Origin: a virus
Taxonomy: Duplodnaviria; Caudoviricetes
Direction: 5' to 3' (one strand)
DNA: 43,314 nucleotides
Virus record (IMG/VR): IMGVR_UViG_3300031519_000055
Coordinates: 1 to 43,314 of that record
Shown: piece by piece, positions 20,898-39,395 of the stretch
Layout: the number at the start of each line of letters is the position of its first letter
Position numbering within the stretch: position 1 is the stretch's first letter
The notes under the pieces: model-generated
Seen by the model: the letters and a program-made list of their open reading frames with translations, nothing else
The model's database searches: none
Told to the model about the DNA's origin: nothing
Position numbers and translations under genes: made by a program

Positions 20898-21109
20898 TGT
20901 CTGAGTATGTCAAAGTAGAAGGACACACGTCTCTTGCAAGAGATGAACAGTCTTCTGCTATTGTCAATACAGATATTACTGCATGGAGATTGCAAAAACT
21001 TAGAAAAGAAAATTATAAAAAACAGGCAGAAGAAATAAATAATATTAAGAGTGATATGACAGAAATCAAAAACATTCTTAATCAAATAGTGGAAAAGATA
21101 AATGGCTAA
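20897..21109 (+). CDS. Small conserved hypothetical protein (coiled-coil C-terminus)
   Basis: More likely start is ATG 20897 (TAATG overlap). KVEGH..LARD..S.AIVN motif usually follows VrlC-like genes. Confidence 0.7.
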   Translation: MSEYVKVEGHTSLARDEQSSAIVNTDITAWRLQKLRKENYKKQAEEINNIKSDMTEIKNILNQIVEKING

Positions 21110-22895
21110 ACAAGTAGACCAATTCAGTACTTTAGAAAATTTTAGAACAACTTTTAATGAAGTGTCCACAAACGTGGGCGATATTACGGGACTTAGAACT
21201 ACAAGTCAAGGTACTATTGTAGACGCAGTAAACAGTATTGAAGATAAGTCATTCTTTTTCCAAGAGTTTATTTTTATTGCAACTGCAGGACAAACTACAT
21301 TTTCAGGAACAGATAGTTTTGGTAACACACTAGAGTTTAAAAAAGATAGACTACAAGTTTATGCAGAAAGAGACCATCAAATAAAAGATGATGATTATAC
21401 AATCGGTGGATTTGGTGTATTAAGTGGAAACACTTATAGTCAGATTACACTTGCTACTGGTGCGACTGTTGGTGATAAGATTACTGTATATTCATACACT
21501 GGTTCATACTTAGGAGTCGCAGACTCAGGTGTTGCAACAGGGTTCTTTAACCAAACTGCAGAAAATGTAATATACAATAACAACGACAGTGGTATCATAT
21601 TTAATGAAACTTCTATCAATGCAACAACTACACTTTCAACAAGTGCAAAGATTGAATTTGATGGAAATGTATATCACCAAGATAATGTAACACTTGCAAG
21701 TGGAAAAACATTATCTGCACCAACACTTACAGACGGAACTATGTCTATTAATAGTGGTGCAATAACTAGTGCAACAACTGGTTCATTTAGTAGTAATGTT
21801 GGAGTTGGGTCACTTACTTCTGCAGGAGATGTCGCAGGAACAACTGGTACATTCTCTTCAAGTATATCTGCAACTTCAGCTGTACTTTCTTCAGATTTAA
21901 CCGTTACTGGGAATACTGTACTAAACGGTAATATTGACTTGGGTAATGCTAGTGGTGATACGATTAGCTTGACAGGTTCAGTAGATTCTGATATAATATC
22001 AGATACGAATAATACTCGTGCCTTAGGGTCTAGTAGTAAAAGGTGGTCAACTGTATACTCAACAGATTTAAATGCAACAGGCACCTCCACATTGACTACA
22101 GTGGACATTAATGGTGGTAATATAGACGGTACAGTAATCGGTAGTTCAACTGCAGCTGCAATTACTGGTACAGTAATTACTGCAAGTACAAATTTTGTTG
22201 GAGACTTAACTGGTGATGTCACTGGTACAGTTTCAGATATATCAAATCATAATACAGGAGACTTGACAGAAGGGTCTAATTTGTATTATACTGATACAAG
22301 AGCAAACTCTGCTTTTGATACAAGACTTGCAACTAAAAATACAGCAAACTTGACAGAAGGCAGTAATCTATACTATACTGATGCAAGAGTATCAACAAGA
22401 ACAGACACTATATTAAATCACTCTAATCATACTAACATTACCGTAAGTAAAGTTGGTGATGAGTTGAGATTATCTGCAACAGAAGACAACCTTTCAAATA
22501 ATACTGCAAATGATTTAAGTGATATTAATTATACTTCATCTCCTACTGCAGGTCAAATACTTGCATGGGATGCTAGTGCTGGATATTGGGAACCTGTAGA
22601 CCCAAGTAATACTACAGATAATGTTTCTGAAGGTTCAAACAATAAGTATTTCTCAGACGATAGAATGAATGCAATTATAGATGTTGCAGGTTCTAAAGGT
22701 CTTGTAAAAACATACGTGGACAATGCGAATGGTGGTGCAGATGACCCGTTAGACGGGACAATCACAATCGACCTAAATACCTCGAACGGATTAACCGTTA
22801 GTAGTAATTCTGTTCAGTTAGATTACGAGACTACAAGTACTGCACCTACCCAAGTAGGTAGTACGTCAACTGGACACTTATGGTTTGTGATATGA
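21102..22895 (+). CDS. Fibre/structural protein (module A base)
   Basis: TLENFRTTFN N-terminus, an ATAGQTTF adaptor domain, T/S/G-rich beta repeats, LTEGSNLYYTD repeats, C-terminal TAPT...GHLWFV motif. Confidence 0.7.
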   Translation: MAKQVDQFSTLENFRTTFNEVSTNVGDITGLRTTSQGTIVDAVNSIEDKSFFFQEFIFIATAGQTTFSGTDSFGNTLEFKKDRLQVYAERDHQIKDDDYTIGGFGVLSGNTYSQITLATGATVGDKITVYSYTGSYLGVADSGVATGFFNQTAENVIYNNNDSGIIFNETSINATTTLSTSAKIEFDGNVYHQDNVTLASGKTLSAPTLTDGTMSINSGAITSATTGSFSSNVGVGSLTSAGDVAGTTGTFSSSISATSAVLSSDLTVTGNTVLNGNIDLGNASGDTISLTGSVDSDIISDTNNTRALGSSSKRWSTVYSTDLNATGTSTLTTVDINGGNIDGTVIGSSTAAAITGTVITASTNFVGDLTGDVTGTVSDISNHNTGDLTEGSNLYYTDTRANSAFDTRLATKNTANLTEGSNLYYTDARVSTRTDTILNHSNHTNITVSKVGDELRLSATEDNLSNNTANDLSDINYTSSPTAGQILAWDASAGYWEPVDPSNTTDNVSEGSNNKYFSDDRMNAIIDVAGSKGLVKTYVDNANGGADDPLDGTITIDLNTSNGLTVSSNSVQLDYETTSTAPTQVGSTSTGHLWFVI

Positions 22896-25082: not shown

Positions 25083-25412
25083 ATGGCTATACTTGCAAAC
25101 ATTTTTATCGACCAAGGTGCTGACTTTTCAATCACTGTAGATGTCACAGACTCTTCAGGTGATATTTTGAATATGTCAGGGTACACTGCAGCTGCACAAA
25201 TAAGAAAAACTTATAGTTCTTCAACTATATCTGCAACCTTTACATGTACCGTACAAGAGGCGAGTGGTCAAGTAACCATAGCATTAACAGATACACAAAC
25301 AACAGCACTAGAAGCTGGTAGATATGTATACGATATGACAGTTACCAGTGGTAGTACTACAACTAGAGTTGTTGAAGGACAGGCAATTGTAACGCCAGGA
25401 GTGACAAGATGA
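25083..25412 (+). CDS. Small Ig-like virion protein (BppU-N-like)
   Basis: NIFIDQGADF, GYTAAAQIRK, LTDTQT..LEAGRYVYD, RVVEG...VTPGVT; common in marine T4-likes. Confidence 0.7.
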   Translation: MAILANIFIDQGADFSITVDVTDSSGDILNMSGYTAAAQIRKTYSSSTISATFTCTVQEASGQVTIALTDTQTTALEAGRYVYDMTVTSGSTTTRVVEGQAIVTPGVTR

Positions 25413-25654
25413 GCAACATAAAAGGAACATTAAGTAGAGTTGCAACTATTGGGGGAAGAATACAGGGACAAGGTAATCTTCGTGCTAAACAAGTTGCGAT
25501 AGGAAATGCTTCAACAGTTACAGACATATCAACTAAAAATTTAAACGAACTTGCAGATGTAAATGCAACAGAAACAGATGACGGACTTCTTTCATATGAT
25601 GCCTCTTCTGATAAATGGACAACTACTACAACTTTAGACGGTGGAACATTCTAG
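25409..25654 (+). CDS. Small structural protein ending in DGGTF
   Basis: ATGA overlap; LNELADV...DGLLSYD...KW motif and LDGGTF terminus. Confidence 0.7.
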   Translation: MSNIKGTLSRVATIGGRIQGQGNLRAKQVAIGNASTVTDISTKNLNELADVNATETDDGLLSYDASSDKWTTTTTLDGGTF

Positions 25655-25658
25655 TTGT

Positions 25659-25665
25659 CTAAATA
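25659..25665 (+). promoter_or_regulatory. Probable late promoter variant CTAAATA
   Basis: TAAATA core at the start of a 149-nt intergenic region; the same variant occurs at 29562, 34923 and 39401. Confidence 0.5.
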
Positions 25666-25680
25666 CTAGTACAAATCAAG

Positions 25681-25767
25681 GATACCAACCAGTGAAGGTA
25701 TCGACCCACATAGTGAGTGGACAGGTTTTAAATATTATGTAATCAACGACCCCGAAAGTGACGGGTC
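25681..25767 (+). ncRNA. Putative structured 5' leader: three hairpins with AGUGA loops
   Basis: GATACC-aaccAGTGAa-GGTATC; CCAC-atAGTGA-GTGG; GAC(C)CCG-aaAGTGA-CGGGTC. Confidence 0.55.
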
Positions 25768-25803
25768 ATTTTAAAAACAATTAATTTTTATAGGAAAATA
25801 AAA

Positions 25804-27432
25804 ATGGCAACAGTAATTCAAATTAAAAGAAGTACAGGCGCAGCTGCACCAACAGTCTCAGACTTAAGTGAAGGCGAATTAGCGTACGTACAAGATAGGT
25901 CGAATTCAGGTGCTAGTGCAAAACTTTATATCGAATCTGTAGACTCTTTAGGTGCAGCTGCGATACACGAAGTCGGTGGTAAATATTACACTGATATCGT
26001 AGATGGTTCATCTGCAACTCCTGCTGACTTTAAAGTCGGTAACGGAGCAACTTCAGGTGGTTCATTAAAGTTATTAGAAGATTCAGACAACGGAACTAAT
26101 TTCGTTGCTTTGAAAGCTGCTGATACACTTTCATCAGACGTGACCTTTACATTACCTTCAGCAGACGGTAGTGCAAACCAAGTAATTGGTACAGACGGAA
26201 GTGGAACACTTTCATTCTTATCAACAACATCTACAATAGCAGGTGCAACGGATTCAGATATCTCAGCTCCATCATCAGGACAATTACTTGTTCATGACGG
26301 AAGTGATTCATTTGATAACGTATCACTAAGTGGTGACGTTACTATGGCATCTTCAGGTGCAGTAACAATCGCAAACGACGCTGTAGAAACAGCAATGATT
26401 GCAGACAGTAATGTAACAGTAGGAAAAATCGACTTCTTAGTAGACGAAGACAATATGGCTTCAGACTCTGCAGTTAAAGTTCCTTCTCAGCAATCTGTTA
26501 AAGCATATGTAGATTCACAAGTAACAGCACAGGATTTAGACCTTGCTGGTGATTCAGGAACTGGTGCAGTCGACTTAGACTCTCAGTCAATCACATTTAC
26601 TGGTGGAACTGGTGTAACAACTTCTGTTTCAGGACAAGCAGCGACTTTCGCTATTGGTCAGGCAGTAGGTACAACATCTAACGTAACTTTCAACAACGTA
26701 GACGTTGATGGAACACTTACATCGGATGATATTACATCTACAAACATTAGTGTTGCAGGTAATGCTACAATCACTGGAAACTTAACTGTACAAGGCACAA
26801 CAACAACTGTAGACTCAACAACAGTTTCAATTGCAGACCCAGTGTTTGAAATTGGTTCTGATGCTTCAGATGATAACTTAGATAGAGGTATTAAATTCAA
26901 ATATAACGATGGAACTGCTAAACTCGGTTTCTTCGGTATGGACGAAAATAATCAAAAATTTGTTGCTCTTAAAGCTGCAACAGATTCTTCTTCAGTATTC
27001 AGTGGTACAGCAATGGACGCTGTATTCGGTGGATTAACAGTATCAAGTCTATCAACAACTGGTGATTTATCAGGTGCTGACCTTTCATTAAGTGGTGCAA
27101 TTACAGGTTATGCTGGTTCAGCTCTTACTGCTGGTGAGTTATTCATTGCGAATGGTTCTACTGGTGAAATGGAAGCTGCAGTTTTAACTGCTGGAGAAGG
27201 TGTAGATATTACTAATGCTGATGGTGCTATCACTATCGCTGGTGAAGACGCATCAACATCTAATAAAGGTATTGCAAGTTTTGCTTCTGCCATATTTGAT
27301 GTTACTTCAGGTGCTGTATCTATTAAAGATGCAACAGCTTCAGTAAAAGGTATTGCTTCATTTGCTTCTGATAATTTCACACTCACTTCAGGTGCAGTTG
27401 CAATTACAGCTATTGATGGTGGAACATTTTAA
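25804..27432 (+). CDS. Tail fibre-like protein
   Basis: N-terminal IQIKRS...LSEGELA (Mtd_N/hyaluronidase-N-like), FTLPSADG, GNLTVQGTTTTVDST, KGIASF repeats, IDGGTF terminus. Confidence 0.75.
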   Translation: MATVIQIKRSTGAAAPTVSDLSEGELAYVQDRSNSGASAKLYIESVDSLGAAAIHEVGGKYYTDIVDGSSATPADFKVGNGATSGGSLKLLEDSDNGTNFVALKAADTLSSDVTFTLPSADGSANQVIGTDGSGTLSFLSTTSTIAGATDSDISAPSSGQLLVHDGSDSFDNVSLSGDVTMASSGAVTIANDAVETAMIADSNVTVGKIDFLVDEDNMASDSAVKVPSQQSVKAYVDSQVTAQDLDLAGDSGTGAVDLDSQSITFTGGTGVTTSVSGQAATFAIGQAVGTTSNVTFNNVDVDGTLTSDDITSTNISVAGNATITGNLTVQGTTTTVDSTTVSIADPVFEIGSDASDDNLDRGIKFKYNDGTAKLGFFGMDENNQKFVALKAATDSSSVFSGTAMDAVFGGLTVSSLSTTGDLSGADLSLSGAITGYAGSALTAGELFIANGSTGEMEAAVLTAGEGVDITNADGAITIAGEDASTSNKGIASFASAIFDVTSGAVSIKDATASVKGIASFASDNFTLTSGAVAITAIDGGTF

Positions 27433-27471
27433 TTAAAATAGTTCAATTAACCAATTCAATAGGAGAGTAAA

Positions 27472-28296
27472 ATGGCAACAGTAATCCAATTTAAAAGAAG
27501 TTCGACTCAGAACCAAGTTCCTGCGACTAGTGATTTATCACTAGGGGAACTTGCTGTAAATACTTACCACGGTAGGTTTTACACTGAAAAGAATGATGGG
27601 TCTGCTGCTGTAGTAGAAGTCGGGTCAAACCCTTCTACTCTTACTATAAATGATGCAATAGCATTTCCAACTAGTGATGGTACAAGCGGTCAGTTGTTAT
27701 CAACTGATGGTAGTGGAACTATAGGTTTCACTGATGCACCTTCTAGTGGTGTTACTACATTTACTTATAGTGTGACAACTAACCAAACGGTCTTTACAGG
27801 TAATGACGATAACGGAGCATCCTTATCGTATACACTTGGTTTAGAACAGGTTTACTTGAATGGTATTAAACTTATAGTTGGAGACGACTATGCAAGGACA
27901 AATACCAGTTCAATCACATTACAAGCGAATGCAGTATCAGGAGATGTTTTAGAGGTGGTCGCTCAGACCTCAATATCAAACTTAGTACAGGGGTTTTTCA
28001 CAACAACTGCACTAACTGCTACAACAGCAGACCAAGTATTGAGTTCTAATCCAACAGGTAATAAAGCAGTGAAATATGTCATAATGGCATCTCACGCTAC
28101 TGCTGGAACACATGCGGCTGAAGTATTATTAATTAACGATGGTTCAAATGCGTATTTTGTTCAGTACGGTGATGCTTTCTCAGCGTCTTCACTATTTACT
28201 TTATCTTCGGATATAAGTGGTGGAAACATGAGATTGTTAACTACACCTGCTAACACAACTACAACATTTAAAACCTTCCAAATTAGACTTTCATAA
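27472..28296 (+). CDS. Fibre-associated structural protein
   Basis: Paralogous IQFKRS...LGELA N-terminus, VYLNG adaptor domain, C-terminal AVKY...HAAEV...QYG domain. Confidence 0.7.
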   Translation: MATVIQFKRSSTQNQVPATSDLSLGELAVNTYHGRFYTEKNDGSAAVVEVGSNPSTLTINDAIAFPTSDGTSGQLLSTDGSGTIGFTDAPSSGVTTFTYSVTTNQTVFTGNDDNGASLSYTLGLEQVYLNGIKLIVGDDYARTNTSSITLQANAVSGDVLEVVAQTSISNLVQGFFTTTALTATTADQVLSSNPTGNKAVKYVIMASHATAGTHAAEVLLINDGSNAYFVQYGDAFSASSLFTLSSDISGGNMRLLTTPANTTTTFKTFQIRLS

Positions 28297-28306
28297 GGAG
28301 TAAAAC

Positions 28307-28717
28307 ATGGCGAAAACTAACGCATTTAAAATCGCTGAGTTAATTCGTGGTATACAATTCGATGTAGACAACGATGAAATTACGACTTCTAAGAAAGTCA
28401 AATCTAGGGACAAGACCTCGGGAAATACAACTAAGACTGCAACTACAGAATTTGCACTGGACACTTTTGCTCACGCAGAGTTCCGAGCTGCAAGATACAT
28501 AGTTGCAATGTCAGAAGGAAGTGCTTTCCACTCTACAGAAATTGTAGTAGTTCATGATGGTTCAGATGTCACGTTAACTCAGTATGGTACTTTAAAATCT
28601 AAAACCCTTGCAACATTTGATGCAGATATTTCAGGAGATAATCTAAGATTATTAGCTACTCCTGCTTCAGTCTCATCAACAGTAATGAAGTTCGATAGAA
28701 CTACAGTAGACGCATAG
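28307..28717 (+). CDS. Structural protein (DTF...RAARY...HSTE...QYG domain)
   Basis: AGGAG RBS; paralogous to the C-termini of 27472-28296 and 28782-29528. Confidence 0.7.
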   Translation: MAKTNAFKIAELIRGIQFDVDNDEITTSKKVKSRDKTSGNTTKTATTEFALDTFAHAEFRAARYIVAMSEGSAFHSTEIVVVHDGSDVTLTQYGTLKSKTLATFDADISGDNLRLLATPASVSSTVMKFDRTTVDA

Positions 28718-28737
28718 AACTGATTTTAAAAATCTTT

Positions 28738-28767
28738 AAGGGGGACTTCATGTCCCCCTTTCTTTTT
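28738..28767 (+). terminator. Rho-independent terminator
   Basis: AAGGGGGAC-TTCAT-GTCCCCCTT stem followed by TCTTTTT. Confidence 0.85.
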
Positions 28768-28768
28768 G

Positions 28769-28776
28769 TATAAATA
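28769..28776 (+). promoter_or_regulatory. T4-type late promoter TATAAATA
   Basis: Exact consensus immediately after the terminator, 5 nt before ATG 28782. Confidence 0.75.
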
Positions 28777-28781
28777 GTATT

Positions 28782-29528
28782 ATGGCAACTAAAACTAAAT
28801 TCTTTACTGATTTAGGGTTTCAATCCTTAGATTCAAGCACTGTAGACGGGGACTTAACGGTCACTGGCAATTTTACAGTACAGGGAAGTAGTTTAACAAT
28901 TGACTCAACAACAGTTTCAGTCACTGATTCTATGTTTGAACTTGCAAGTGGAAACACTACAAGTGATATTATTGACATAGGTATATACGGAAACTATGAT
29001 GATGGTTTATCAGACGGTGGTGCAAGTGAATTTACAGGTTTATTCAGAGACGCAACCGATTCAACATGGAAGTTATTTGATGGATTAGAGATTGAGCCAG
29101 GAAATACAGTCAACATCAGTGGAACGGGTTATGCATATGCAGACTTTAAAGCTGGTGATATAGAAGCAACAGGTCAGTTAACTGCAGTTGGCCCACTTTC
29201 TCTAAGTAATTTGAGAATGGACGCAGACCAAAACCTAACTACAACTGCAACTACTGAAGTAGATTTAGATACATTTCCTCTATTGAGTTATAGAAGTGCA
29301 AAGTATCACATACAAGCATCACAAGGAACTAACTACCATGCAACAGAAGTTATGGTAATACATAATTCTACTAATGCTTATTTTTCTCAATTTGGTGATA
29401 TTTATACAAACACTTCATTGTTTAGTCTATCTGTTGATACTAATTCAGGAAATGTTAGACTAAGAGTCACTCCTGCATCATCTTCTTCTACGGCATTTAA
29501 AATAAGTCGAAATTTATTAAAAGTATAA
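28782..29528 (+). CDS. Fibre-associated structural protein
   Basis: GDLTVTGNFTVQG, DIGIYG..GLFRDATD..WKLF, C-terminal YRSAKY...HATE domain. Confidence 0.7.
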   Translation: MATKTKFFTDLGFQSLDSSTVDGDLTVTGNFTVQGSSLTIDSTTVSVTDSMFELASGNTTSDIIDIGIYGNYDDGLSDGGASEFTGLFRDATDSTWKLFDGLEIEPGNTVNISGTGYAYADFKAGDIEATGQLTAVGPLSLSNLRMDADQNLTTTATTEVDLDTFPLLSYRSAKYHIQASQGTNYHATEVMVIHNSTNAYFSQFGDIYTNTSLFSLSVDTNSGNVRLRVTPASSSSTAFKISRNLLKV

Positions 29529-29561
29529 GGTAATACCACACTTTACAAGGAACTGGTTTTA

Positions 29562-29568
29562 CTAAATA
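29562..29568 (+). promoter_or_regulatory. Probable late promoter variant CTAAATA
   Basis: Intergenic TAAATA core upstream of 29612. Confidence 0.45.
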
Positions 29569-29611
29569 AAAGTATATAATTCATTAACCATTTACGATAG
29601 GACACCAAAAA

Positions 29612-29842
29612 ATGGCAACACAAAACAAATTTGTAGTAGAATACGGAGTCAGTGTTGGAACCACTGAAGTTATAAATTCATCGGGTAAAATCGTTGCAGC
29701 TGCAATATCAGATTTAACTACTGATAATCTTGCAGAAGGTTCCGCTAAGTACTACGCAAACTCATTAGTAGACACGCATTTATCAGATGCATCTACATCT
29801 AAAACTCTGGCGAATGTTCAGATTGACGGAGGAACATTATAA
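29612..29842 (+). CDS. Small structural protein ending in DGGTL
   Basis: N-terminus paralogous to that of 29842 (F.V..G.SV...EVINSSG); TTDNLAEG repeat. Confidence 0.7.
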   Translation: MATQNKFVVEYGVSVGTTEVINSSGKIVAAAISDLTTDNLAEGSAKYYANSLVDTHLSDASTSKTLANVQIDGGTL

Positions 29843-32151
29843 TGGCTGGAGAAAAGAATTTCAATATTAAGAATGGTTTATCAGTTGCTGGTGTTGAGGT
29901 AATCAACTCATCAGGTGCATTAGTCGGTTCTTCAATAACAGAATCTATAGACGATAGAGTAAGTAGTTTACTTGTCGCAGGTACAGGTGTATCATTAGCA
30001 TATGACGATGGTGCTGGAACACTTACAATCAACGGACAACAAGGTGATATAACTGGAGTTAATGCTGGTGCTGGTTTAACTGGTACTGCAAGTTCGGGTG
30101 ATGCAACACTTAATATTGGTGCTGGAACAGGTATTACTGTAAACGCAGATGACATCGCAATCGATTTCAAAGATGAAGACGATATGTCTTCAAATAGTGC
30201 AACTCACGCTGCAACACAACAATCAATTAAAGCATATGTTGATGCAAGTATCTTAACAAAAGATAACACAGATGAAATCACAGAAGGTTCAAGCAATCTT
30301 TATTTTACAGATGCAAGAGCAAGAGGTGCTTTATCGGCAACTGGTGATTTATCTTATAACTCATCAACTGGTGTATTCAGTTTCACAAACGATGCAGGTG
30401 ACATCGAATCAGTAGTTGCTGGTTCGGGTTTAACTGGTGGTGCAACAAGTGGAGCTGCAACATTAAACATCGGTGCTGGAACTGGTATTACTGTAAACGC
30501 AGATGACATCGCAGTTAATATGTCTGCATTTGATACAGATGACCTTTCAGAAGGTTCAACGAATGAATACCATACAACTGCAAGAGCAAGAGCATCAATT
30601 AGTGCAAGTGGAGATTTGTCATATAACTCTACAACTGGTGTAATCTCATTCACTAATGATGCAGGTGATATCGAAAGTGTCACTGCTGGAGATGGTTTAT
30701 CAGGTGGTGGAACTACAGGTGCATTATCACTTGCAGTAAATGTTGATGATAGTTCAATCGAAACAAGTTCAGACACATTACAAGTAAAAGCACTTGGTAT
30801 TACAGACGCTATGTTGGCTGGTTCAATATCAAATGCAAAACTTGCTAACAGTTCAATCACAGTTAACGGAAGTGCAACTGCCTTAGGTAGTGCAGTCACA
30901 CTAGACACTGGAGACCTTTCAGAAAATGGAAATCTATTCTTTACAAACGAAAGAGTCGATGACAGAGTTAATGCATTATTGGTTGCTGGTACAAATATCA
31001 CAACAACATATGATGATGCAAATGGTACATACACAATTAATTCTTCAGGTAAAACACAAGAAGAAATAGAAGATATCGTAAACGGATTAGTAGTTGGTGG
31101 AACAAACATCACTTCTACATATGACGATACTGCTGGAACACTTACACTTGCTGGTTTATCAGATGGTGATGTTAGAGGTTTATTCTCTGCTGGTGGTGAT
31201 TTATCATACAACAGTTCAACAGGTGCATTCTCAGTCACAACTTATACAGATACAGATGCAAGAGGTGCTATATCAGTATCAGACACTGCTGGTGATGGTG
31301 CAATATCATACAACAACTCAACTGGTGTAATTACATATGCTGGTATTACAGATGCACAAGTAAGAGGTAAAGTATCAGTCACAGACGCAGGTGGAGATGG
31401 TTCACTTGCATATAATTCAACTAGTGGTGTAATCACATACACAGGCCCTAGTGCATCAGAGACCCGTGCTCATTTAAGTGCAGGTACTGGTGTTGGATTC
31501 AGTGGTGGTGCAATATCCATCGGACAGGCAGTTGCAACATCAAGTAATGTTACATTTGCTGACTTAACACTTTCTGGCAACTTGACAGTTAACGGCACAA
31601 CAACTACTGTTAACACTGCAACGCTTAATGTTTCTGATAATATTGTTGTTGTTAACAATGATGTGACTGGAACACCTACTGAAGACGCTGGTCTTGAAGT
31701 AGAAAGAGGAACTTCTGCTAACGTATCTCTATTATGGGATGAGTCAGAAGATGAATGGACATTTGGTTCATATAATGTTAAGGCAACTTCTTTTGAAGGT
31801 TCATTGACAGGAAACGCTTCTACTGCATCTAGTGCTGCTCAATTAACGAGTGCAAGAACAATCAGTTTGGGTGGAGACCTTTCAGGTTCTGCTTCATTTA
31901 ATGGTACTTCAGACATTACAATTACAGCTGCAGTTGCAGATGATTCACATAATCACACAATTGCAAACGTTGACGGATTACAGACTGCATTAAACACTAA
32001 ATATGAGAGTGGTTCTAATGCGACACTCGGTACAATAACAACGAGTAATACATCGAACTCAGGTGGATATGTGAGAAACATATATCAATCAACTTCATCT
32101 CCTACAAGTGGTGATGGTGCAGTTGGTGATTTATGGGTTTTATACTCTTAA
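29842..32151 (+). CDS. Long fibre protein (module B base)
   Basis: Repeated TDxLxEGxxNLYFTxARAR, LSYNSSTGV and GDIxxVxAGxGL units; C-terminal SPTSGDGAVGDLWV motif. Confidence 0.75.
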   Translation: MAGEKNFNIKNGLSVAGVEVINSSGALVGSSITESIDDRVSSLLVAGTGVSLAYDDGAGTLTINGQQGDITGVNAGAGLTGTASSGDATLNIGAGTGITVNADDIAIDFKDEDDMSSNSATHAATQQSIKAYVDASILTKDNTDEITEGSSNLYFTDARARGALSATGDLSYNSSTGVFSFTNDAGDIESVVAGSGLTGGATSGAATLNIGAGTGITVNADDIAVNMSAFDTDDLSEGSTNEYHTTARARASISASGDLSYNSTTGVISFTNDAGDIESVTAGDGLSGGGTTGALSLAVNVDDSSIETSSDTLQVKALGITDAMLAGSISNAKLANSSITVNGSATALGSAVTLDTGDLSENGNLFFTNERVDDRVNALLVAGTNITTTYDDANGTYTINSSGKTQEEIEDIVNGLVVGGTNITSTYDDTAGTLTLAGLSDGDVRGLFSAGGDLSYNSSTGAFSVTTYTDTDARGAISVSDTAGDGAISYNNSTGVITYAGITDAQVRGKVSVTDAGGDGSLAYNSTSGVITYTGPSASETRAHLSAGTGVGFSGGAISIGQAVATSSNVTFADLTLSGNLTVNGTTTTVNTATLNVSDNIVVVNNDVTGTPTEDAGLEVERGTSANVSLLWDESEDEWTFGSYNVKATSFEGSLTGNASTASSAAQLTSARTISLGGDLSGSASFNGTSDITITAAVADDSHNHTIANVDGLQTALNTKYESGSNATLGTITTSNTSNSGGYVRNIYQSTSSPTSGDGAVGDLWVLYS

Positions 32152-32165
32152 TTTAAGAGTATAAA
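32139..32165. repeat. Perfect inverted repeat TTTATACTCTTAA-T-TTAAGAGTATAAA
   Basis: 13-bp arms with a 1-nt spacer; overlaps the upstream stop codon and the late promoter. Confidence 0.85.
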
Positions 32166-32167
32166 TA
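32160..32167 (+). promoter_or_regulatory. T4-type late promoter TATAAATA
   Basis: Exact consensus 25 nt before ATG 32193. Confidence 0.75.
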
Positions 32168-32192: not shown

Positions 32193-33668
32193 ATGGCAAC
32201 AGGGTCACAAAAGGTAAAAACACCTTCGGGTTGGAGTTCAACTCAGGGTGGTTGGGTTAAATCGGGTTCTACAACATGGAAGGCTGTTGACCAAATATAT
32301 GTAAAGACACCTACAGGGTGGAATAATGCATCGGGTCAACAATCTGTTCAACAACCATACCCATACATTGCAAATAGTCAGACTCCATATATTGCTAATA
32401 GACAAAATCCTTATCCATACATTGCAAATAGTCAGACCCCATATATTGCTTCTAGACAAAATCCTTATCCGTATATTGCTAATAGTCAGACCCCATATAT
32501 CGCAGACGCACAGCAACCTTATCCGTATATTGCAAATAGTCAGACTCCGTATATTGCGAATGCAAGACAACCTGCTACGTATCAACATAGGTCTCCATTT
32601 ACATATAGAAACCCAGTAAATGCACAAACTCCATACATTGCAGCTGCACAACAGGCATATCCGTATATTGCATCTGCACAAGAACCTAACATAAGGTCAG
32701 CACAACAACCGTATCCTTATATTGCATCTGCACAAGAACCTAACATAAGGTCAGCACAACAGACATATCCTTATATTGCTAATGCTAGACAACCGAACAC
32801 ATACCAACATAGGTCTCCATTTACATACAGAAACCCTGTAAATGGTCAAACACCTTATATTGCAAATGCTAGAAGTCCAAGAGGATATAGAAACCCTGTA
32901 AATGGTCAAACACCTTATATTGCAAATGCTAGAAGTCCAAGAGGATATAGAAACCCTGTTTCTGCACAACAACCTACTATTAAGAATAGACAAACACCAT
33001 TTACATATAACGCTAGATATCCTGCGAATGCTCAGTCACCTTCTAATGGACAAACACCATTTACATATAACAATAGGTATCCTGCAAATGCTCAGTCACC
33101 TAGTAGTAAACAGAGTCCATTTACATACAATGCTAGATACCCTGCGAATGCTCAGAGTCCTAGTAGTAAACAGAGTCCATTTACATATAGTTTCAGAAGT
33201 CCGACCACATACACTTATCCCGACCCTGCAATTTGGGGCCCGTATCCAGTAACAGGTGGTAATTTATCAAACTATGCATACTTTTATTCAGGGTTTAGGA
33301 CTACAGGCGGTGGGCCTGCCCAAGTTGCTAGTGGTTTCGGTTCAAGTCCATGGTCTTCTTTGGCTGATAGTAGTCCGTATATACAACATAAATGGTGTTT
33401 TCAGAAGATTCCAGTAACTAATGGTACTGGCACTTTACAATTTTCATGGTTTAATAAAACACCAACAAGTGCATATCTTGGGTCGGAGTTTTCATATATA
33501 CAAGTAGTGACACCTGCTGGAACTACAAATATACCAGTAGGTTCATTATCATCCATTTCACCAACACCAGTACCATCATCAACGAGTTTTCAGATGACTA
33601 TACCATCTCCAACATTCCTTACTTATTGTTTGGCCAATGGTCAAGCTGGTTCAATAGCGTTATTTTAA
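32193..33668 (+). CDS. Pro/Tyr/Gln/Arg repeat protein B1 (anchor, 290-aa stalk, tip domain)
   Basis: N-terminal W-rich KAVDQIYVKTPTGW module, 31 units of 8/10/12 aa (residues 55-344), 147-aa C-terminal domain. Confidence 0.88.
   Translation: MATGSQKVKTPSGWSSTQGGWVKSGSTTWKAVDQIYVKTPTGWNNASGQQSVQQPYPYIANSQTPYIANRQNPYPYIANSQTPYIASRQNPYPYIANSQTPYIADAQQPYPYIANSQTPYIANARQPATYQHRSPFTYRNPVNAQTPYIAAAQQAYPYIASAQEPNIRSAQQPYPYIASAQEPNIRSAQQTYPYIANARQPNTYQHRSPFTYRNPVNGQTPYIANARSPRGYRNPVNGQTPYIANARSPRGYRNPVSAQQPTIKNRQTPFTYNARYPANAQSPSNGQTPFTYNNRYPANAQSPSSKQSPFTYNARYPANAQSPSSKQSPFTYSFRSPTTYTYPDPAIWGPYPVTGGNLSNYAYFYSGFRTTGGGPAQVASGFGSSPWSSLADSSPYIQHKWCFQKIPVTNGTGTLQFSWFNKTPTSAYLGSEFSYIQVVTPAGTTNIPVGSLSSISPTPVPSSTSFQMTIPSPTFLTYCLANGQAGSIALF
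33207..33668 (+). repeat. Direct repeat copy 2 (462 nt, tip domain)
   Basis: About 96% identical to 23680-24141. Confidence 0.95.
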
Positions 33669-33683
33669 TTAGAGGAAAGATAT

Positions 33684-33971
33684 ATGTCATTAATAACACA
33701 AACAATAGAAGGAAGAGAATACTATATAAGAAGTCCACTTCCAACAGTCACATGTAATGGTATAGATTATACTGTTGGTATGATGATGCCACTTACGAAT
33801 TACACTGTAGGTGGAAATGTTGATACTTCAACTGCAACAGAACACTTTGAACAACAGGAATCAGGTTTAATCAATGAAGCAATTATTATGTCATATTCAT
33901 TACCAGTAGTAGAAGATGGAAATGAAGTTTGGACTTTATTAGATGCTTGTCCACAGTTAACAGCGGTATAA
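33684..33971 (+). CDS. Small hypothetical protein between B1 and B2
   Basis: GAGGA RBS; 95 aa; fills the gap; acidic with two Cys. Confidence 0.7.
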   Translation: MSLITQTIEGREYYIRSPLPTVTCNGIDYTVGMMMPLTNYTVGGNVDTSTATEHFEQQESGLINEAIIMSYSLPVVEDGNEVWTLLDACPQLTAV

Positions 33972-33986
33972 TAGGATAATAAACAA

Positions 33987-34919
33987 ATGGCAATAGGAAA
34001 TACCCAACAACCAAATATAGGAAATGCTAGACAACCTGTAATCTATAGGAATCCCTTTACCTATAGGGTTCCGTATATTGCCAATGCAAGACAACCTGTA
34101 ATCTATAGGAATCCTTTTACATATAGGGTACCTTATATTGCTAATGCAAGACAACCTTTCACTTACAGAAACCCATTTACATATAGGGTTCCATATATTG
34201 CTAATGCTAGACAACCTAGTACGTATCAACATAGGTCTCCATTTACATACAGAAACCCTGTTGGATATCAGTTACCGTTTACTTATAATAACAGACAACC
34301 ATTTACATACAGAAACCCTGTTGGATATCAGTTACCGTTTACTTATAGTAACAGACAACCATTTACATATAGAAACCCTGTTAATGCACAACAACCTAAT
34401 ATAAGGAATAGTCAAACACCATTTACCTATGCAAGACAGGGTAGAACACCATTTACATATAATCATAGAAGTCCATTTACCTATGCAAGACAAGGACAAA
34501 CACCGTTTACCTATAATCATAGAAGTCCATTTACTTATGCAAGACAAGGTAGAACACCGTTCACTTATAGTAACAGGCAACCTAGTACATATCAAAACCC
34601 TGTTAATGCACAAGAACCTAATATTAGAAATTCACAAACTCCGTTCACTTATCAGAACAGACAGCCTGGTACATATCAAAGAACAGGTAGAACACCGTTC
34701 ACTTATAGTAACAGACAACCTGCAACATATGCTAGACAAGGACAAACTCCTACTACATATCAAAACAGACAACCTGCAACATATGCTAGACAAGGACAAA
34801 CTCCTACTACATATCAAAACAGACAGCCTGGAACATATGCTAGACAAGGTAGAACCCCTGTTATCCGTTGGGATGGTGCATTACAACAAAACTGGCCAGG
34901 AACACCTATATCCTCTTAA
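33987..34919 (+). CDS. Pro/Tyr/Thr/Arg repeat protein B2 (mirror partner of B1)
   Basis: AGGA RBS; 31 units covering residues 1-290, then a 20-aa tail; very basic. Confidence 0.88.
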   Translation: MAIGNTQQPNIGNARQPVIYRNPFTYRVPYIANARQPVIYRNPFTYRVPYIANARQPFTYRNPFTYRVPYIANARQPSTYQHRSPFTYRNPVGYQLPFTYNNRQPFTYRNPVGYQLPFTYSNRQPFTYRNPVNAQQPNIRNSQTPFTYARQGRTPFTYNHRSPFTYARQGQTPFTYNHRSPFTYARQGRTPFTYSNRQPSTYQNPVNAQEPNIRNSQTPFTYQNRQPGTYQRTGRTPFTYSNRQPATYARQGQTPTTYQNRQPATYARQGQTPTTYQNRQPGTYARQGRTPVIRWDGALQQNWPGTPISS

Positions 34920-34952: not shown

Positions 34953-36530
34953 ATGGACAAATTAAAAACTTTAGAGCAAACAAAAGAACTTTTAACATTC
35001 CCCGAGTCATTCAAAGATTTAGACCATAGGTCTAGAAGGGAAATAGACCAATGGCATTTAGGTGCAATAAACGACTTATCTAACATAGACGAAGAATCTG
35101 AATTTTTTAAGATTCTTGAATACATGTTTGAAAACATGCCTCCACTTAAAATATGTAAGTGGTCTGATTTAGAACAACTAAGAAGGGATGGAAAACTAAT
35201 CGGTTGGCAAGGTCTTAGATTTCAAGCAAACTCATATCATAAATTCCTACCCGAAATTTACACATCAGGTTCTATTAATGAACATGGCGCTCCTTCTACA
35301 AAATTTGCAGTATCAGAACCTATAACTGATAAAGAAGTTTACATTGGAGACTATGCAGGAGAAGAACTAGAAAACGGAGATTTTCAAGCAGAAGATTTTC
35401 CAATTGCACTAAACTCAATGTATTATCATAGTGCAAAAGCACATTGGTTAACTCAAAGTATACAAGAAGAAGGATTGTGGGCGCCCATACAAGGTCTTAC
35501 ACAAATGTGTGGTGACAGAATACAATTAATGATTCACCCAGGCTCTGTTCGTTCAGGTTGTTTTGAGGAAATGGAAGACCCGACTCATGAATTATTATTA
35601 TGGGATTCACATGATATTATACCAACAAATCCAATAACAGTCAAGCAATGCTTAGAGTATTGGCAAGACAAAGTTTGTAATGGGGTTAGAAAACCAAAAT
35701 ACAAAGGTCTTTCTGCAATATGGACAATGGGAACTATAGAGTTTCAAGCAGATTTTAGTAATGTTGATTTTAGGAAATATGTATGGGAGCATAGTGAAAA
35801 GGTCACTAAACTTGCAAAAGGAAAACCCCTTAATATTTACATTGGGTATGATAGTAGACATAATGGATTAGAACATGTATGTAAAGAATCTATTTTAAAG
35901 GGAATACAAAAATCTATTGGTGGGGGAAGACTTGTAAACTATAATAAGTTTGTTCCCGAAATTAAATTTTTAGATGTATCCAAGATACCCGAATACAAAA
36001 GACCATATGAGAATCAATCTACATGGTTTACTTACAGTAGATTCTTAATTCCTTACTTGGAAAACTATGAAGGTTTCAGTTTGTTTATAGATGATGATTT
36101 CATTTTCAATAAATCATTACTACCTATGTTTTACTATTTGAATACAGATGACGCAGTTGCATGTATTAAATATCCACAAATCAAACATGATGAAACTAAA
36201 TTTGATGGTGAAGTAAACATTGATTATCCATGTAAGTTGTGGTCTTCAATGATGTTCTTTAATAATGGACATGAAGATTGTAAAAAACTAACACCCGAAG
36301 TGGTAAACAGTTGGACTGGTTCTCAGTTACATCAATTTGAATGGACTGATAAGATTAGTCCTATACCCGAAAAATATATATTTGTTGAGGGGTATGACGA
36401 CCCTAATGTGAAGTGGGACTATAGTGGAATTCACTATACTAGAGGAGGCCCGTGGATAAATGACATGGATTCTAGTCACATAAATAACTTAGAAGATTAT
36501 AATAAAATAAAAAAATCTATTGTAATTTAA
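34953..36530 (+). CDS. Two-domain protein: unknown N-terminal domain fused to a GT-A (GT8-like) glycosyltransferase
   Basis: C-terminal half has IYIGYDSR, STWFTYSRFLIPYL, LFIDDDF (DxD), WSSMMFFN, LHQFEW, HYTRGGPW. Confidence 0.75.
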   Translation: MDKLKTLEQTKELLTFPESFKDLDHRSRREIDQWHLGAINDLSNIDEESEFFKILEYMFENMPPLKICKWSDLEQLRRDGKLIGWQGLRFQANSYHKFLPEIYTSGSINEHGAPSTKFAVSEPITDKEVYIGDYAGEELENGDFQAEDFPIALNSMYYHSAKAHWLTQSIQEEGLWAPIQGLTQMCGDRIQLMIHPGSVRSGCFEEMEDPTHELLLWDSHDIIPTNPITVKQCLEYWQDKVCNGVRKPKYKGLSAIWTMGTIEFQADFSNVDFRKYVWEHSEKVTKLAKGKPLNIYIGYDSRHNGLEHVCKESILKGIQKSIGGGRLVNYNKFVPEIKFLDVSKIPEYKRPYENQSTWFTYSRFLIPYLENYEGFSLFIDDDFIFNKSLLPMFYYLNTDDAVACIKYPQIKHDETKFDGEVNIDYPCKLWSSMMFFNNGHEDCKKLTPEVVNSWTGSQLHQFEWTDKISPIPEKYIFVEGYDDPNVKWDYSGIHYTRGGPWINDMDSSHINNLEDYNKIKKSIVI

Positions 36531-36548
36531 ACATAATTGAGGTATAAT
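36520..36548 (+). promoter_or_regulatory. Sigma70-type promoter TTGTAA-17nt-TATAAT
   Basis: -35 at 36520-36525, perfect -10 at 36543-36548, ATG 6 nt downstream. Confidence 0.65.
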
Positions 36549-36554
36549 AACAGT

Positions 36555-37112
36555 ATGAACGCACTAATTTACACAGAAGACCAAAAACTAATAATCAGAA
36601 AACCAAATGGTTTACAATATGAATTTGAAAATACAGACCAACCTGAACTTGGGTTTGATTTTGATGTATTGATATATGATGATATTGAAGTAGTAATAGA
36701 AAAATGGGAAGAAAGTAAGTGTTTTGACGACCAAGTACAAAGGCCTATTACTGGAGCTGAAAAGGAAATTATAGAAAACTATATTTCAAATTCCGAACCT
36801 CCTATAGGAGTTACATTAAACAATCAATATGTATCAGACTTAATGAATCAACTTAAAGGTAACCTAGATGATTTTATGGGAAACTATGGGTTTGAAGATT
36901 TAACAGAGGTTACTTTTGCAGGTAGAGAGGGGTCTAATCACCCATATAGGTCTAATGCAAGAAGAGTAATGGAATTTACTGATTCCCAATATGTCATATA
37001 TGACCAGTTAGTAAATGAAATATTTGCAACTCGAGAAGACCATCTAAAACCTATAGAAGATTATATCAATCAACTTCCTATAGCAAGTCTATTGCCCGAC
37101 CACGAAAGATAA
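36555..37112 (+). CDS. Hypothetical protein (weak resemblance to tail-fibre assembly proteins)
   Basis: Start placed at ATG 36555 (MNALIYTED) rather than TTG 36537, which lies inside the promoter; acidic. Confidence 0.7.
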   Translation: MNALIYTEDQKLIIRKPNGLQYEFENTDQPELGFDFDVLIYDDIEVVIEKWEESKCFDDQVQRPITGAEKEIIENYISNSEPPIGVTLNNQYVSDLMNQLKGNLDDFMGNYGFEDLTEVTFAGREGSNHPYRSNARRVMEFTDSQYVIYDQLVNEIFATREDHLKPIEDYINQLPIASLLPDHER

Positions 37113-37115
37113 GTC

Positions 37116-37835
37116 ATGTATGATGACATAAAAGTCGTCCACATAGACGAACCTTTTAAAATTAAGGATTTACCACTTAAAGATGTATATGTCATAGATG
37201 ATTATCTATGTCCCGAATTACATCATCACTTTGACGACCAAATTGTAAGAGAAAATATATGGTCTAAAACAAATCAAGTAAGTAGTGGAAGTCCAACAGG
37301 TTTACCACATCATAGTTTTTGGGGTGCAACATATTACAGAGATGATATGAAGCCCGAAAAGGATATGAATAGTCTCCATACAATGTTTCCTTATTATCTT
37401 AATAGAAGACTACAAACAGAGTTTGGGTTTAAATGGGTAAGGTTTCAGTATATGGGATTGAACTCTCAAACACAAGGATTACAAGGAACTACTCATGCAG
37501 ATTGTCAAGATGAGGACTCTTGGAATCTTTCATTCTTATATTACACTAATAAGTTTTGGAACAAAGACTGGGGTGGAACATTAAGATTGTATAATGAAAT
37601 GCAACAAGGTTTAGACGGTAGACAGGAACATATAGACAATCACCAAATTGCAGAGGTTGAGTTTAAACCAAACAGATTAATAATTTTTGATGGAAGGATA
37701 CCACATGGTGCTGATGCACCGTCTCCTTCAGCACGATATATAGATAGACGGTCTCTTGTTTTGAGAGGCGATGAAGTAAGATTAGTAGAGGAAGAAGAGT
37801 TTTTTCATGCCAACGATAGAATTTCACACATATAA
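37116..37835 (+). CDS. 2OG-Fe(II) oxygenase, prolyl-hydroxylase-like
   Basis: HxD (THADC), WGGTL, PNRLIIFDGRIPHG, distal R in RRSLV. Confidence 0.85.
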   Translation: MYDDIKVVHIDEPFKIKDLPLKDVYVIDDYLCPELHHHFDDQIVRENIWSKTNQVSSGSPTGLPHHSFWGATYYRDDMKPEKDMNSLHTMFPYYLNRRLQTEFGFKWVRFQYMGLNSQTQGLQGTTHADCQDEDSWNLSFLYYTNKFWNKDWGGTLRLYNEMQQGLDGRQEHIDNHQIAEVEFKPNRLIIFDGRIPHGADAPSPSARYIDRRSLVLRGDEVRLVEEEEFFHANDRISHI

Positions 37836-38691
37836 TAAAGAAACACTAAGAGACTTTAAACCAGTCCTTGCAAGTTCTATTCAGCCTGATTGGTGGAAGA
37901 AAGCTAAAGTTGGTGAAATAGTCAGAGGAGTGGTACAACAAACTATTCGTTCATGTCCTGCAATGGATGACTGGTTAAAGAGTGGTTGGTATTTACTTGC
38001 AAATCGAGACATTGAAGTTATAAATGGGGTAAGTAAACATGATTCAGGAAGTTCTACTACTGCAACTCATGACCCACATAATAGTGCTTATAACTCTTCA
38101 AGTCATCCAATAACACAAACACTAGATGCATTTGAATACTTGGGTAGTGGTAAACCAGTTAAAGATGCATTTAAAATGAGAAACCCGTGGAACATTAAAA
38201 CTCCTCCAGGCTATTCCTGTTTTTATCTAGACCCATTTTTATTTCAAAACGATTACTTTGCAACATGGCAAGGTGTAATAGACACCGATACATTTAATGT
38301 AGGAATGGATAATGCACAAATTATATTTTACCCTAAAGTAGACCATTCGTTTGTAATACCAAAGGGTACACCTCTTTGTCAAATTATACCATATAAAAGA
38401 GAGACTTGGAATGCATCATATATTGTTAATGACCACGAATCTTGGATAAAGAATCGTGCAACTAAGACTTCTGAATTTGAAGATAAACCTACAAATAAGT
38501 CTATGCAAGAATGGTCTCAAATAAGTAATTTTGAAGACGAAAGTATTTCAGGATTTGGTGGGTATAGAAGAGGTAAATTTTGGAAACCAAAAGGTAGATT
38601 CTATAAAGAAGAAACACCACCACCCGAATGTCCTATGCATAAAGCAGAAGATGAAGGTAAAAAAGAAATACAATTGGAGTTAGATGTATAA
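37807..38691 (+). CDS. Conserved phage protein (DUF6065-like), often found next to 2OG oxygenases
   Basis: TIRSCPAM, NPWNIKTPPGYSC, GVIDTD, IPKGTPLCQIIPYKR. Confidence 0.6.
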   Translation: MPTIEFHTYNKETLRDFKPVLASSIQPDWWKKAKVGEIVRGVVQQTIRSCPAMDDWLKSGWYLLANRDIEVINGVSKHDSGSSTTATHDPHNSAYNSSSHPITQTLDAFEYLGSGKPVKDAFKMRNPWNIKTPPGYSCFYLDPFLFQNDYFATWQGVIDTDTFNVGMDNAQIIFYPKVDHSFVIPKGTPLCQIIPYKRETWNASYIVNDHESWIKNRATKTSEFEDKPTNKSMQEWSQISNFEDESISGFGGYRRGKFWKPKGRFYKEETPPPECPMHKAEDEGKKEIQLELDV

Positions 38692-39395
38692 TGGCAGTTA
38701 GATTATTATTCCCAACCTTCGTATTTGAGAAGGATTTGTTAGACCCAAGTTTAGACGAGACTCGTGGTATTGACCAAAATTATTTAAACCTTCTTGTAGA
38801 TACAATGGATGGTATGAGAAGGAAAGACCCCGAAGGTAGAAGACTATCTAATGCATACACTGGTTGGCAATCACATGACGGTTGTGAATCAAATCCTGCA
38901 TTTCAAAAACTAATGAATAGAATACAAACTATGTTTTATGATGAGATATGGCCATTTCATGGTTTAGACCGTAATACAGCACAAATGCAAATAGGCAACT
39001 GTTGGGCAAACATAAATGATAAACTTGCATGGAACAAACCACACTTACATAATGGTTGTTGGTATAGTGGTGTGTTTTATATAAAAGCAGATGGTGACGA
39101 AGGTCATATAGAAATGATTGATACACATCCTAAAGTTGTTTCAGATTTTCCCAATTCACAAAGGACTCCTACCAGCAAAGGATATGAACCTAGGGGTGGT
39201 AAACTAATTCTGTTCCCAAGTGGTCTCATGCACATGGTAGAACCAAATCCAACTGATAAAGAAAGATATTCAGTATCATTCAACATGGAAATGAAATACA
39301 CAAAACCCGAAGGACATACTGGTAATATAAATAATTACAATCCTGATGAATTTGTTTATAATGTATCTCCAAATGGGGCTCTTACAACCGACTAA
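38691..39395 (+). CDS. Putative 2OG-Fe(II) oxygenase, TIGR02466-like
   Basis: LFPT, WANIN, PHLH...SGVFY, LILFPSGLMHMVEPN, RYSVSFN. Confidence 0.82.
   Translation: MAVRLLFPTFVFEKDLLDPSLDETRGIDQNYLNLLVDTMDGMRRKDPEGRRLSNAYTGWQSHDGCESNPAFQKLMNRIQTMFYDEIWPFHGLDRNTAQMQIGNCWANINDKLAWNKPHLHNGCWYSGVFYIKADGDEGHIEMIDTHPKVVSDFPNSQRTPTSKGYEPRGGKLILFPSGLMHMVEPNPTDKERYSVSFNMEMKYTKPEGHTGNINNYNPDEFVYNVSPNGALTTD

Follow-up and report, generated by a model that had tools for sequence, protein, structure and literature searches.

Mirror-image repeat arrays in two neighbouring proteins of an uncultured T4-like myovirus: a candidate two-chain beta-ribbon stalk on a tail fibre

Two proteins, B1 and B2, are encoded close together in a stretch of viral DNA of 43,314 nucleotides (IMG/VR record IMGVR_UViG_3300031519_000055, positions 1 to 43,314; the whole stretch is called the window below), which corresponds to the structural gene module of an uncultured marine T4-like myovirus. 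Each protein carries a long array of short repeat units, and the series of unit lengths in B2 is the exact reverse of that in B1. As this residue-by-residue mirror is kept in related viruses while the arrays vary almost threefold in length, the two chains likely zip together. Antiparallel, in-register pairing of B1 with B2 is very likely, and the best model, to which we would give a probability of about three in four, is a two-stranded antiparallel beta-ribbon stalk, with one chain of each protein, on the C-terminus of the upstream tail fibre.

The initial annotation of this DNA had divided the B1 array into 31 units with a sum of 290 residues, and had read the same series of lengths in reverse in residues 1-290 of B2; both the series and its coordinates were reproduced. 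Without any segmentation by hand, 36 of the 38 prolines in the B2 array face a B1 proline at i+j=346 (residue i of B1, residue j of B2), compared to 23 matches at the runner-up antiparallel sum and 22 at the best parallel offset. The shuffled-order null suggested at the time gave a mean of 17.5 and a maximum of 27 matches in 20,000 shuffles of the proline-to-proline segments of B2, and a mean of 18.0 and a maximum of 28 when 6+6 blocks were held together. The array prolines, which make up 13–15% of the residues, are all on one parity in both chains, and all unit lengths in the window are even. Mutual information between facing residues is maximal at i+j=344, two below the proline-proline sum, and a peak at this same distance recurs across 45 well-matched pairs. 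The constant antiparallel sum therefore holds, but the earlier value of about 345 is corrected to a pairing register of 344. As had also been stated, the DNA is not an inverted repeat: the best minus-strand match is 12 bases long (E 0.17), and near the mirror register identity is 31–36% whether the DNA is reversed, complemented or both. Facing partner units do differ in sequence, but B1 and B2 are nonetheless paralogues, as follows from their direct-strand DNA homology (about 240 nt at 73%, E 1e-35) and their single shared unit vocabulary.

Relatives were collected in two scans of viral contigs, of which the best 80 of 223 and the best 80 of 262 candidates yielded 156 loci. Together with the window, a complete pair is present in 137 of 157 records; the other 20 were left out because of contig ends (19 records) or an unrecognized non-ATG start (L046). 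These records comprise 64 distinct pairs with 48 distinct B2 spacing patterns, all from related viruses and thus not independent draws. Every one of the 64 pairs exceeds all 200 of its own shuffles (z 5.7–17.8), with arrays ranging from 186 to 540 residues (B2 proteins of 206–559 aa), and the register sum follows the length of B2 (Spearman 0.997). The fraction of matching prolines has a median of 0.96 for cognate and 0.55 for non-cognate combinations, and its own B1 is the best or tied partner for 45 of the 48 B2 spacing patterns.

A residue-pairing table was trained solely on the window and three close kin, and tested on the 60 other pairs. Arrays of unmatched length or order had been named beforehand as an observation that would refute a zipper, and they are rare: 57 of the 60 held-out pairs align antiparallel and gapless over at least 91% of the B2 array. 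In control alignments with this code, 44 of 46 cognate pairs passed, compared to 6 of 2070 non-cognate pairs (five of which are near kin or one-sided variants), 0 of 46 in parallel orientation and 0 of 46 for B2 with itself. Pairing of each chain with itself, the homodimer alternative, scored far under the cognate pair. The expectation that insertions and deletions are mirrored was borne out in part. In 11 of 25 comparisons chosen by hand, the two genes carry changes of the same sizes and in mirrored order, but 4 are one-sided, and the remaining 10 show an equal net change that is split differently or is obscured by the boundary rule for the B1 array. The window differs from L004 by +12, +8, +10 and +20 in both genes. 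A motif-walk rule for the ends of the B1 array failed in 6 of the 64 pairs and was not relied on. Unusual gene starts were seen in L140:7483-8787 and L046:458-1405, where B2 has a GTG start and B1 a non-standard (Ile) first codon, and in L171:5727-9101 B1 is seemingly interrupted or split, with an open reading frame (ORF) of 285 aa, a gap and then B2.

The pairing code was counted over the 33 best-matched patterns, in which 1282 pairs of units face each other. Units of the PxTY type (8-mers) face 8-mers of the PxI type 565 times, while PxI faces PxI 3 times; PxTYxRQGxT 10-mers face PYPY 10-mers 179 times, and two classes of 6-mers face one another 356 times. Each unit class is found in either chain. 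In these same patterns, the parity that holds the prolines is characterized by the pairs P:R, P:Q, N:T and I:Q and contains 0% aromatics, and the other parity by A:Y, A:F, V:Y and G:Y, with an aromatic opposite a small residue in 50% of cases. On this second parity, two aromatics face each other in 0.5% of pairs compared to 12% expected. In beta-sheets, successive cross-strand pairs lie on opposite faces, and hydrogen-bonded sites alternate with non-bonded ones; proline is tolerated only at a non-bonded site, where it blocks the outer edge. The parity pattern would thus be expected of an edge-capped two-stranded ribbon.

A second mirrored pair, A1/A2, surfaced through a search for longer relatives of B2. 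It is located in the window behind a fibre gene whose product ends in GHLW, parallel to the GDLW-ending fibre before B1. Prolines alone do not reveal its mirror (12 matches, z 2.3); the code trained on the B proteins aligns A1 with A2 antiparallel with a score of 146 (shuffle mean 29, maximum 41), at 97% coverage and with two one-residue gaps, whereas cross pairings score 44–71. The same code aligned all 7 of the split A pairs that were found. The tip domains of A1 and B1 are identical in 145 of 153 residues and 442 of 462 nucleotides, and this 96% identity in DNA points to a recent event of gene conversion or duplication that involved both stalks.

In 44 database proteins the start of A1 and the end of A2 are joined in one chain, and all 22 of those tested are internally mirrored (z 4.5–25). 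In L160 and L161 such a single-chain fusion sits in the A locus. A profile search among 1.84 billion representatives returned only 162 relatives, and 64 longer proteins included no B-type fusion, which counts as weak evidence. The fused A-type hairpins of L160:6103-7935, L161:7001-8836 and P0066-P0151 have a conserved irregular central segment at the turn, which may serve as a tip. P0255, P0265 and P0275 have the same termini, but their units are of other types with few prolines and their central domain is large; they do not follow the trained code and may have a separate one.

AlphaFold2 models were made of two fused proteins. In P0072 (mean predicted local distance difference test score, pLDDT, 43) the only long strands are 13-35 and 382-404, with a sum of 417, which is the code register. 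In P0166 (164 aa, pLDDT 50), probably a collapsed form of P0068, strands 13-36 and 94-117 have a sum of 130 and are followed by short anchor strands; the register i+j=130 had been taken from the code before the model was made. The models point to beta pairing, and to the register, at the base of the stalk only. A Foldseek search with both low-confidence models against PDB and BFVD gave nothing at E<=0.001, a profile of the fused family had no match to PDB sequences at E<=1, and ESM Atlas feature matches for B2 and the tip domain were all below 0.9. The second pair with its near-identical tip, the internally mirrored single-chain fusions and the strand limits at the code register go beyond the initial annotation.

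The antiparallel in-register zipper put forward in that annotation is thus supported by the gapless alignment of 57 of 60 held-out pairs, by the mirrored sizes and order of indels, and by natural fusions that occur as hairpins. We propose that B1 and B2 associate head-to-tail, one chain each, into a thin in-register ribbon, which would be roughly 95–100 nm long and would be attached by the Trp-rich N-terminal domain of B1 to the C-terminus of the upstream tail fibre. Residues facing each other at i+j=344 would be direct cross-strand neighbours. Prolines opposite Arg or Gln, where the backbone NH points outwards, would cap both edges and stop growth of the sheet, and the parity on which Tyr and Phe meet Ala, Gly, Val or Ser would form an aromatic ladder. 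The irregular succession of 6-, 8- and 10-residue units would allow one register only, so that the array may be its own ruler and address. We also lean, with rather less assurance, towards a wider view, in which the pair would be a genetically encoded protein duplex: two chains written in a small self-complementary unit alphabet would fold only together, into a single edge-capped ribbon of programmable length (about 60–180 nm) that is itself the host-contacting fibre, and the length would evolve by paired mirror indels via bulged intermediates.

At the base of the proposed stalk, a fibre gene with a GD[LM]W-type end is found directly 5' of B1 in 64 of 64 pairs, and its product would be the carrier. 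The N-terminal domain of B1, with invariant columns across 15 aligned B1 proteins and four Trp residues in three repeats, would be the anchor on this fibre. The C-terminal motif of B2 comes into register near B1 residue 54 in every one of the 64 pairs, and in the code alignments the C-terminal end of B2 falls at B1 residue 53-58 in 60 of 60; its tail would complete the base beside the anchor. The three anchor repeats are found either all in B1, or one in A1 and two in A2; as short hairpins they could form a pseudo-three-fold cap for a trimeric fibre end. From such a cap, and by analogy with gp38 (discussed below), we infer with moderate confidence that there is one ribbon per trimeric fibre end.

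The initial annotation also placed a tip domain at the distal end. Such a domain is present in B1 of the window, but it is optional: the B1 array is followed by a non-Hint domain in 16 of the 64 pairs, by a Hint-like domain directly after a glycine run in 19, and by no domain in 29. The stalk would extend the reach of the fibre. What it presents would be either a variable tip domain or, as in most relatives, only the basic, aromatic surface and the end of the stalk itself. The tip domain of the window gave a weak structural lead, under the bar, to a MAM/CBM4-9-like beta-sandwich (TM about 0.5, ESM Atlas structures). A B1-B2 spacer of 283–529 nt is present in all 16 pairs with a non-Hint tip and in none of the other 48 (an apparent gap in L040 is a missed GTG start), suggesting that ORF X, which lies in this position in the window, may be a tip partner or chaperone. 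A1 and A2 of the window are not separated by a spacer of this size, and a single X may therefore act on both of the identical tips.

Hint/intein-type Pfam matches were obtained in 6 of 7 relatives scanned, mostly under the curated cut-offs, with the Hint domain starting at a Cys after the array; window B1 has no Hint domain. Hint-like sequences with a GGG-CF start and His-Asn near the end follow the B1 array in L074:1022-2239, L054, L061, L066, L045 and L032, and proteins of the A1 type often carry a domain plus Hint. Judged from these sequence features, the stalk tip of such relatives may undergo self-cleavage or ligation, and if Hint cleaves, the mature stalk would end bare in most relatives.

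Several observations weigh against the ribbon stalk. A one-sided indel of 18–44 residues is present in 5 of the 64 pairs (L069, L114, L154, L025 and L138); each of these has a relative that is 99–100% identical where compared, and the indels reflect either misassembly of the repeats or genuine intermediates. Among the fused records, the divergent P0265 and P0275, which are poor in proline, do not fit the code, and P0049 and P0055 fit it weakly. Both AlphaFold2 models are of low confidence (pLDDT about 55–65 on the paired strands), pair just the first 23–24 residues, which are the same conserved stretch, and represent A-type fusions rather than B1 with B2; moreover, pairing was deduced from where the strands begin and end and not from contacts between residues. 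No cultured phage carrying the pair was found in the collection searched: tblastn with B1 gave no match there, and tblastn matches of B2 in five Pseudomonas phage records were rejected as unrelated proline-free 9-residue repeats. Finally, no solved precedent was found for a bare two-stranded ribbon of 290 residues, and the B arrays are strongly basic (K+R 24 and 36, compared to D+E 4 and 1). Given a basic charge on both arrays and a ribbon without solved precedent, further packing or a counter-ion may be needed.

The alternative that survives best, although we consider it unlikely, is a 3:3 assembly, in which three antiparallel B1:B2 pairs form one six-stranded needle, comparable to the T4 gp37 stem but encoded by split genes. 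The upstream fibre is probably a trimer, an out-and-back six-stranded antiparallel structure has been described for the gp37 needle (PMC7291167, PMC9603124), and a bundle might bury the aromatic face. However, a proline every 6–10 residues on the outward parity of both chains would disrupt the hydrogen bonding at the second edge that a closed barrel needs, the His-x-His motif occurs in 0 of the four arrays of the window, and the presence of three anchor repeats in a single pair points to one pair for each trimer. A bundle of ribbons packed through side chains, a variant of this arrangement, is still conceivable.

Somewhat less probable again is an antiparallel pair that is not a fibre-tip stalk, with B2 acting as a full-length assembly chaperone or ruler that is released later, or with the duplex located at a neck whisker, on the head or outside the virion. 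The collection of cultured phages yielded no carrier of these genes, and most relatives have no tip domain, both of which would suit this view. The natural fusions, which join both arms in one chain, argue against a releasable B2, and the strict position of both pairs after a fibre ending in GD[LM]W or GHLW argues against another location. An antiparallel but non-beta zipper, extended and polyproline-II-like and held by side chains, would agree with the proline content of the B arrays and with the absence of secondary structure from most of each AlphaFold2 model, but it is very improbable in view of the strict two-residue parity of prolines and aromatics, the even unit lengths in the window, and the beta strands in the stretches that were modelled. 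An origin of the mirror as a side effect of inverted duplication or an assembly artefact at the DNA level, or of a small unit alphabet, is already largely refuted, for although tandem repeats are hard to assemble and B1 and B2 share DNA homology, there is no inverted DNA match, shuffles preserving the alphabet fail, 48 distinct spacing patterns each match their own partner, and complementarity at the residue level requires selection on protein.

Full-text literature searches, with most subscription papers and supplements outside their scope, returned no description of a mirror-image repeat pair or fibre design of this kind. T4 gp37 is encoded by one gene and forms an interwoven homotrimer, 20 nm in all, with iron-binding His-x-His pairs. 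Its needle (D10-D11) consists of out-and-back antiparallel beta strands that form a thin stem at the tail-fibre end (PMC7291167, PMC9603124). The two-chain ribbon preferred here would use the same out-and-back strand idea, and the fused A-type proteins share the single-chain topology. In contrast to gp37, B1/B2 and A1/A2 are on separate ORFs, a single out-and-back chain being found only in the fused A-type relatives; the stalks would be 60–180 nm if extended and consist of proline-punctuated repeat units with a pairing code; the four arrays of the window lack His-x-His; and no sequence match to solved structures was found, the fold comparison being on low-confidence models only.

In S16/T2-type phages, gp38 is encoded by a separate gene after the fibre gene, and a single product caps the trimeric (gp37)3 via three conserved tryptophans (PMC6851490). 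B1 resembles gp38 in being encoded directly after a fibre gene in 64 of 64 pairs, and in its N-terminus with four Trp in three repeats. However, gp38 has an alpha-helical attachment domain followed by a beta-helix and a polyglycine sandwich, whereas the paralogous anchor of B1 is modelled as short beta strands, after which comes a long array that would need a second chain; window B1 has no gp38 family match and no glycine-rich motifs. Tandem beta-zippers form when an unfolded peptide contributes a strand to domains that are already folded, and antiparallel heterodimeric coiled coils consist of helices with a constant period. These systems share with the proposed ribbon the recognition of two different chains, antiparallel and in register over many modules, but here two arrays of aperiodic order would fold only with each other.

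The gene order of the window (35.7% G+C) is baseplate genes, a DUF4815/VrlC-like gene, several fibre-like genes, B1, ORF X, B2, a GT8-like gene, two 2OG-Fe(II) oxygenase genes, neck and terminase (Table 1). The variable host recognition cluster of pelagimyophages and cyanomyophages, which includes fibre genes and a GT8 glycosyltransferase gene, is likewise bounded by a VrlC-like gene and the neck genes (PMC7029224), so that the window locus is in the same place; the accessible text of that account describes no mirror-image repeat pair. B1 has no Pfam or PHROG family over the cut-off. Sites of the T4 late promoter type number 8 on the + strand of the window. The GT8-like gene is the next gene 3' of B2 in 64 of 64 pairs, and the order conserved behind B2 (34953-39395) is GT8-like fusion, unknown gene, prolyl-hydroxylase-like 2OG-Fe(II) oxygenase, unknown gene and second oxygenase. 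Judged from this gene order, and apart from our main claim, these enzymes could modify the proline- and tyrosine-rich stalk. ORFs at 25409, 25804 and 29612 (region 25409-29842) share a C-terminal DGG[TS]F-type motif, conserved in relatives, which is possibly a shared docking tag.

The neck protein of the window is 52% identical to that of Mosig/HTVC008M and 50.5% identical to that of Melnitz (Pelagibacter and Methylophilales myophages); two contigs of metagenome-assembled genomes of unrelated taxa were rejected as host evidence. Metagenome runs containing the stretch are from marine or brine samples. Contigs from three DNA runs of three studies, of which one may be the source of the window, tile parts of it with 0–9 differences per piece, no single piece covering the whole. 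In one RNA run, contigs are about 90–99% alike over 25 of 30 bins; as these are relatives and DNA is possible in that run, no expression of the locus is claimed.

Table 1. Features of the window around the two mirrored pairs.
Feature	Position	Strand	Remarks
DUF4815 (VrlC-like) gene	14244-20897		Family match
Fibre-like protein, 597 aa, C-terminal GHLW motif	21102..22895	+	phrog_697, E 7e-07; directly 5' of A1
A1, 414 aa	22897..24141	+	First chain of the second pair, whose mirror is more degenerate; shares the B1 tip domain
A2, 302 aa	24155..25063	+	Returning chain of the second pair; two anchor-like repeats at C-terminus
Upstream fibre-like protein, 769 aa, C-terminal GD[LM]W motif	29842..32151	+	phrog_697 structural protein, E 4e-30
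TATAAATA	32160..32167	+	Match to the T4 late promoter consensus; 33 nt 5' of B1 start
B1, 491 aa	32193..33668	+	Trp-rich N-terminal domain 1-54, repeat array 55-344, variable C-terminal domain ~345-491
B1 N-terminal domain	32193..32354	+	Three short repeats ending GW/TW, nearly invariant
B1 repeat array, 290 aa	32355..33224	+	Proposed outgoing strand
B1 tip domain	33225..33668	+	Hypervariable among relatives
ORF X, 95 aa	33684..33971	+	Between B1 and B2
B2, 310 aa	33987..34919	+	Array 1-290 (proposed returning strand) and conserved C-terminal RWD..W.P tail
GT8-like glycosyltransferase fusion	34953..36530	+	PF01501, E 0.002, under cut-off
Neck gene	39725		Family match

If the model is true, these viruses would have a fibre design that is neither a parallel homotrimer nor a single-chain hairpin. 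They would also offer a natural example of two unfolded chains that recognize each other by sequence across hundreds of residues, through a code that can be read. As the code predicts which chains bind, it offers orthogonal, length-defined protein rods for design. It would also open to test the stability of an isolated two-stranded beta-ribbon at 100 nm, the evolution of paired indels in two genes, and the way in which abundant marine myoviruses reach dilute hosts.

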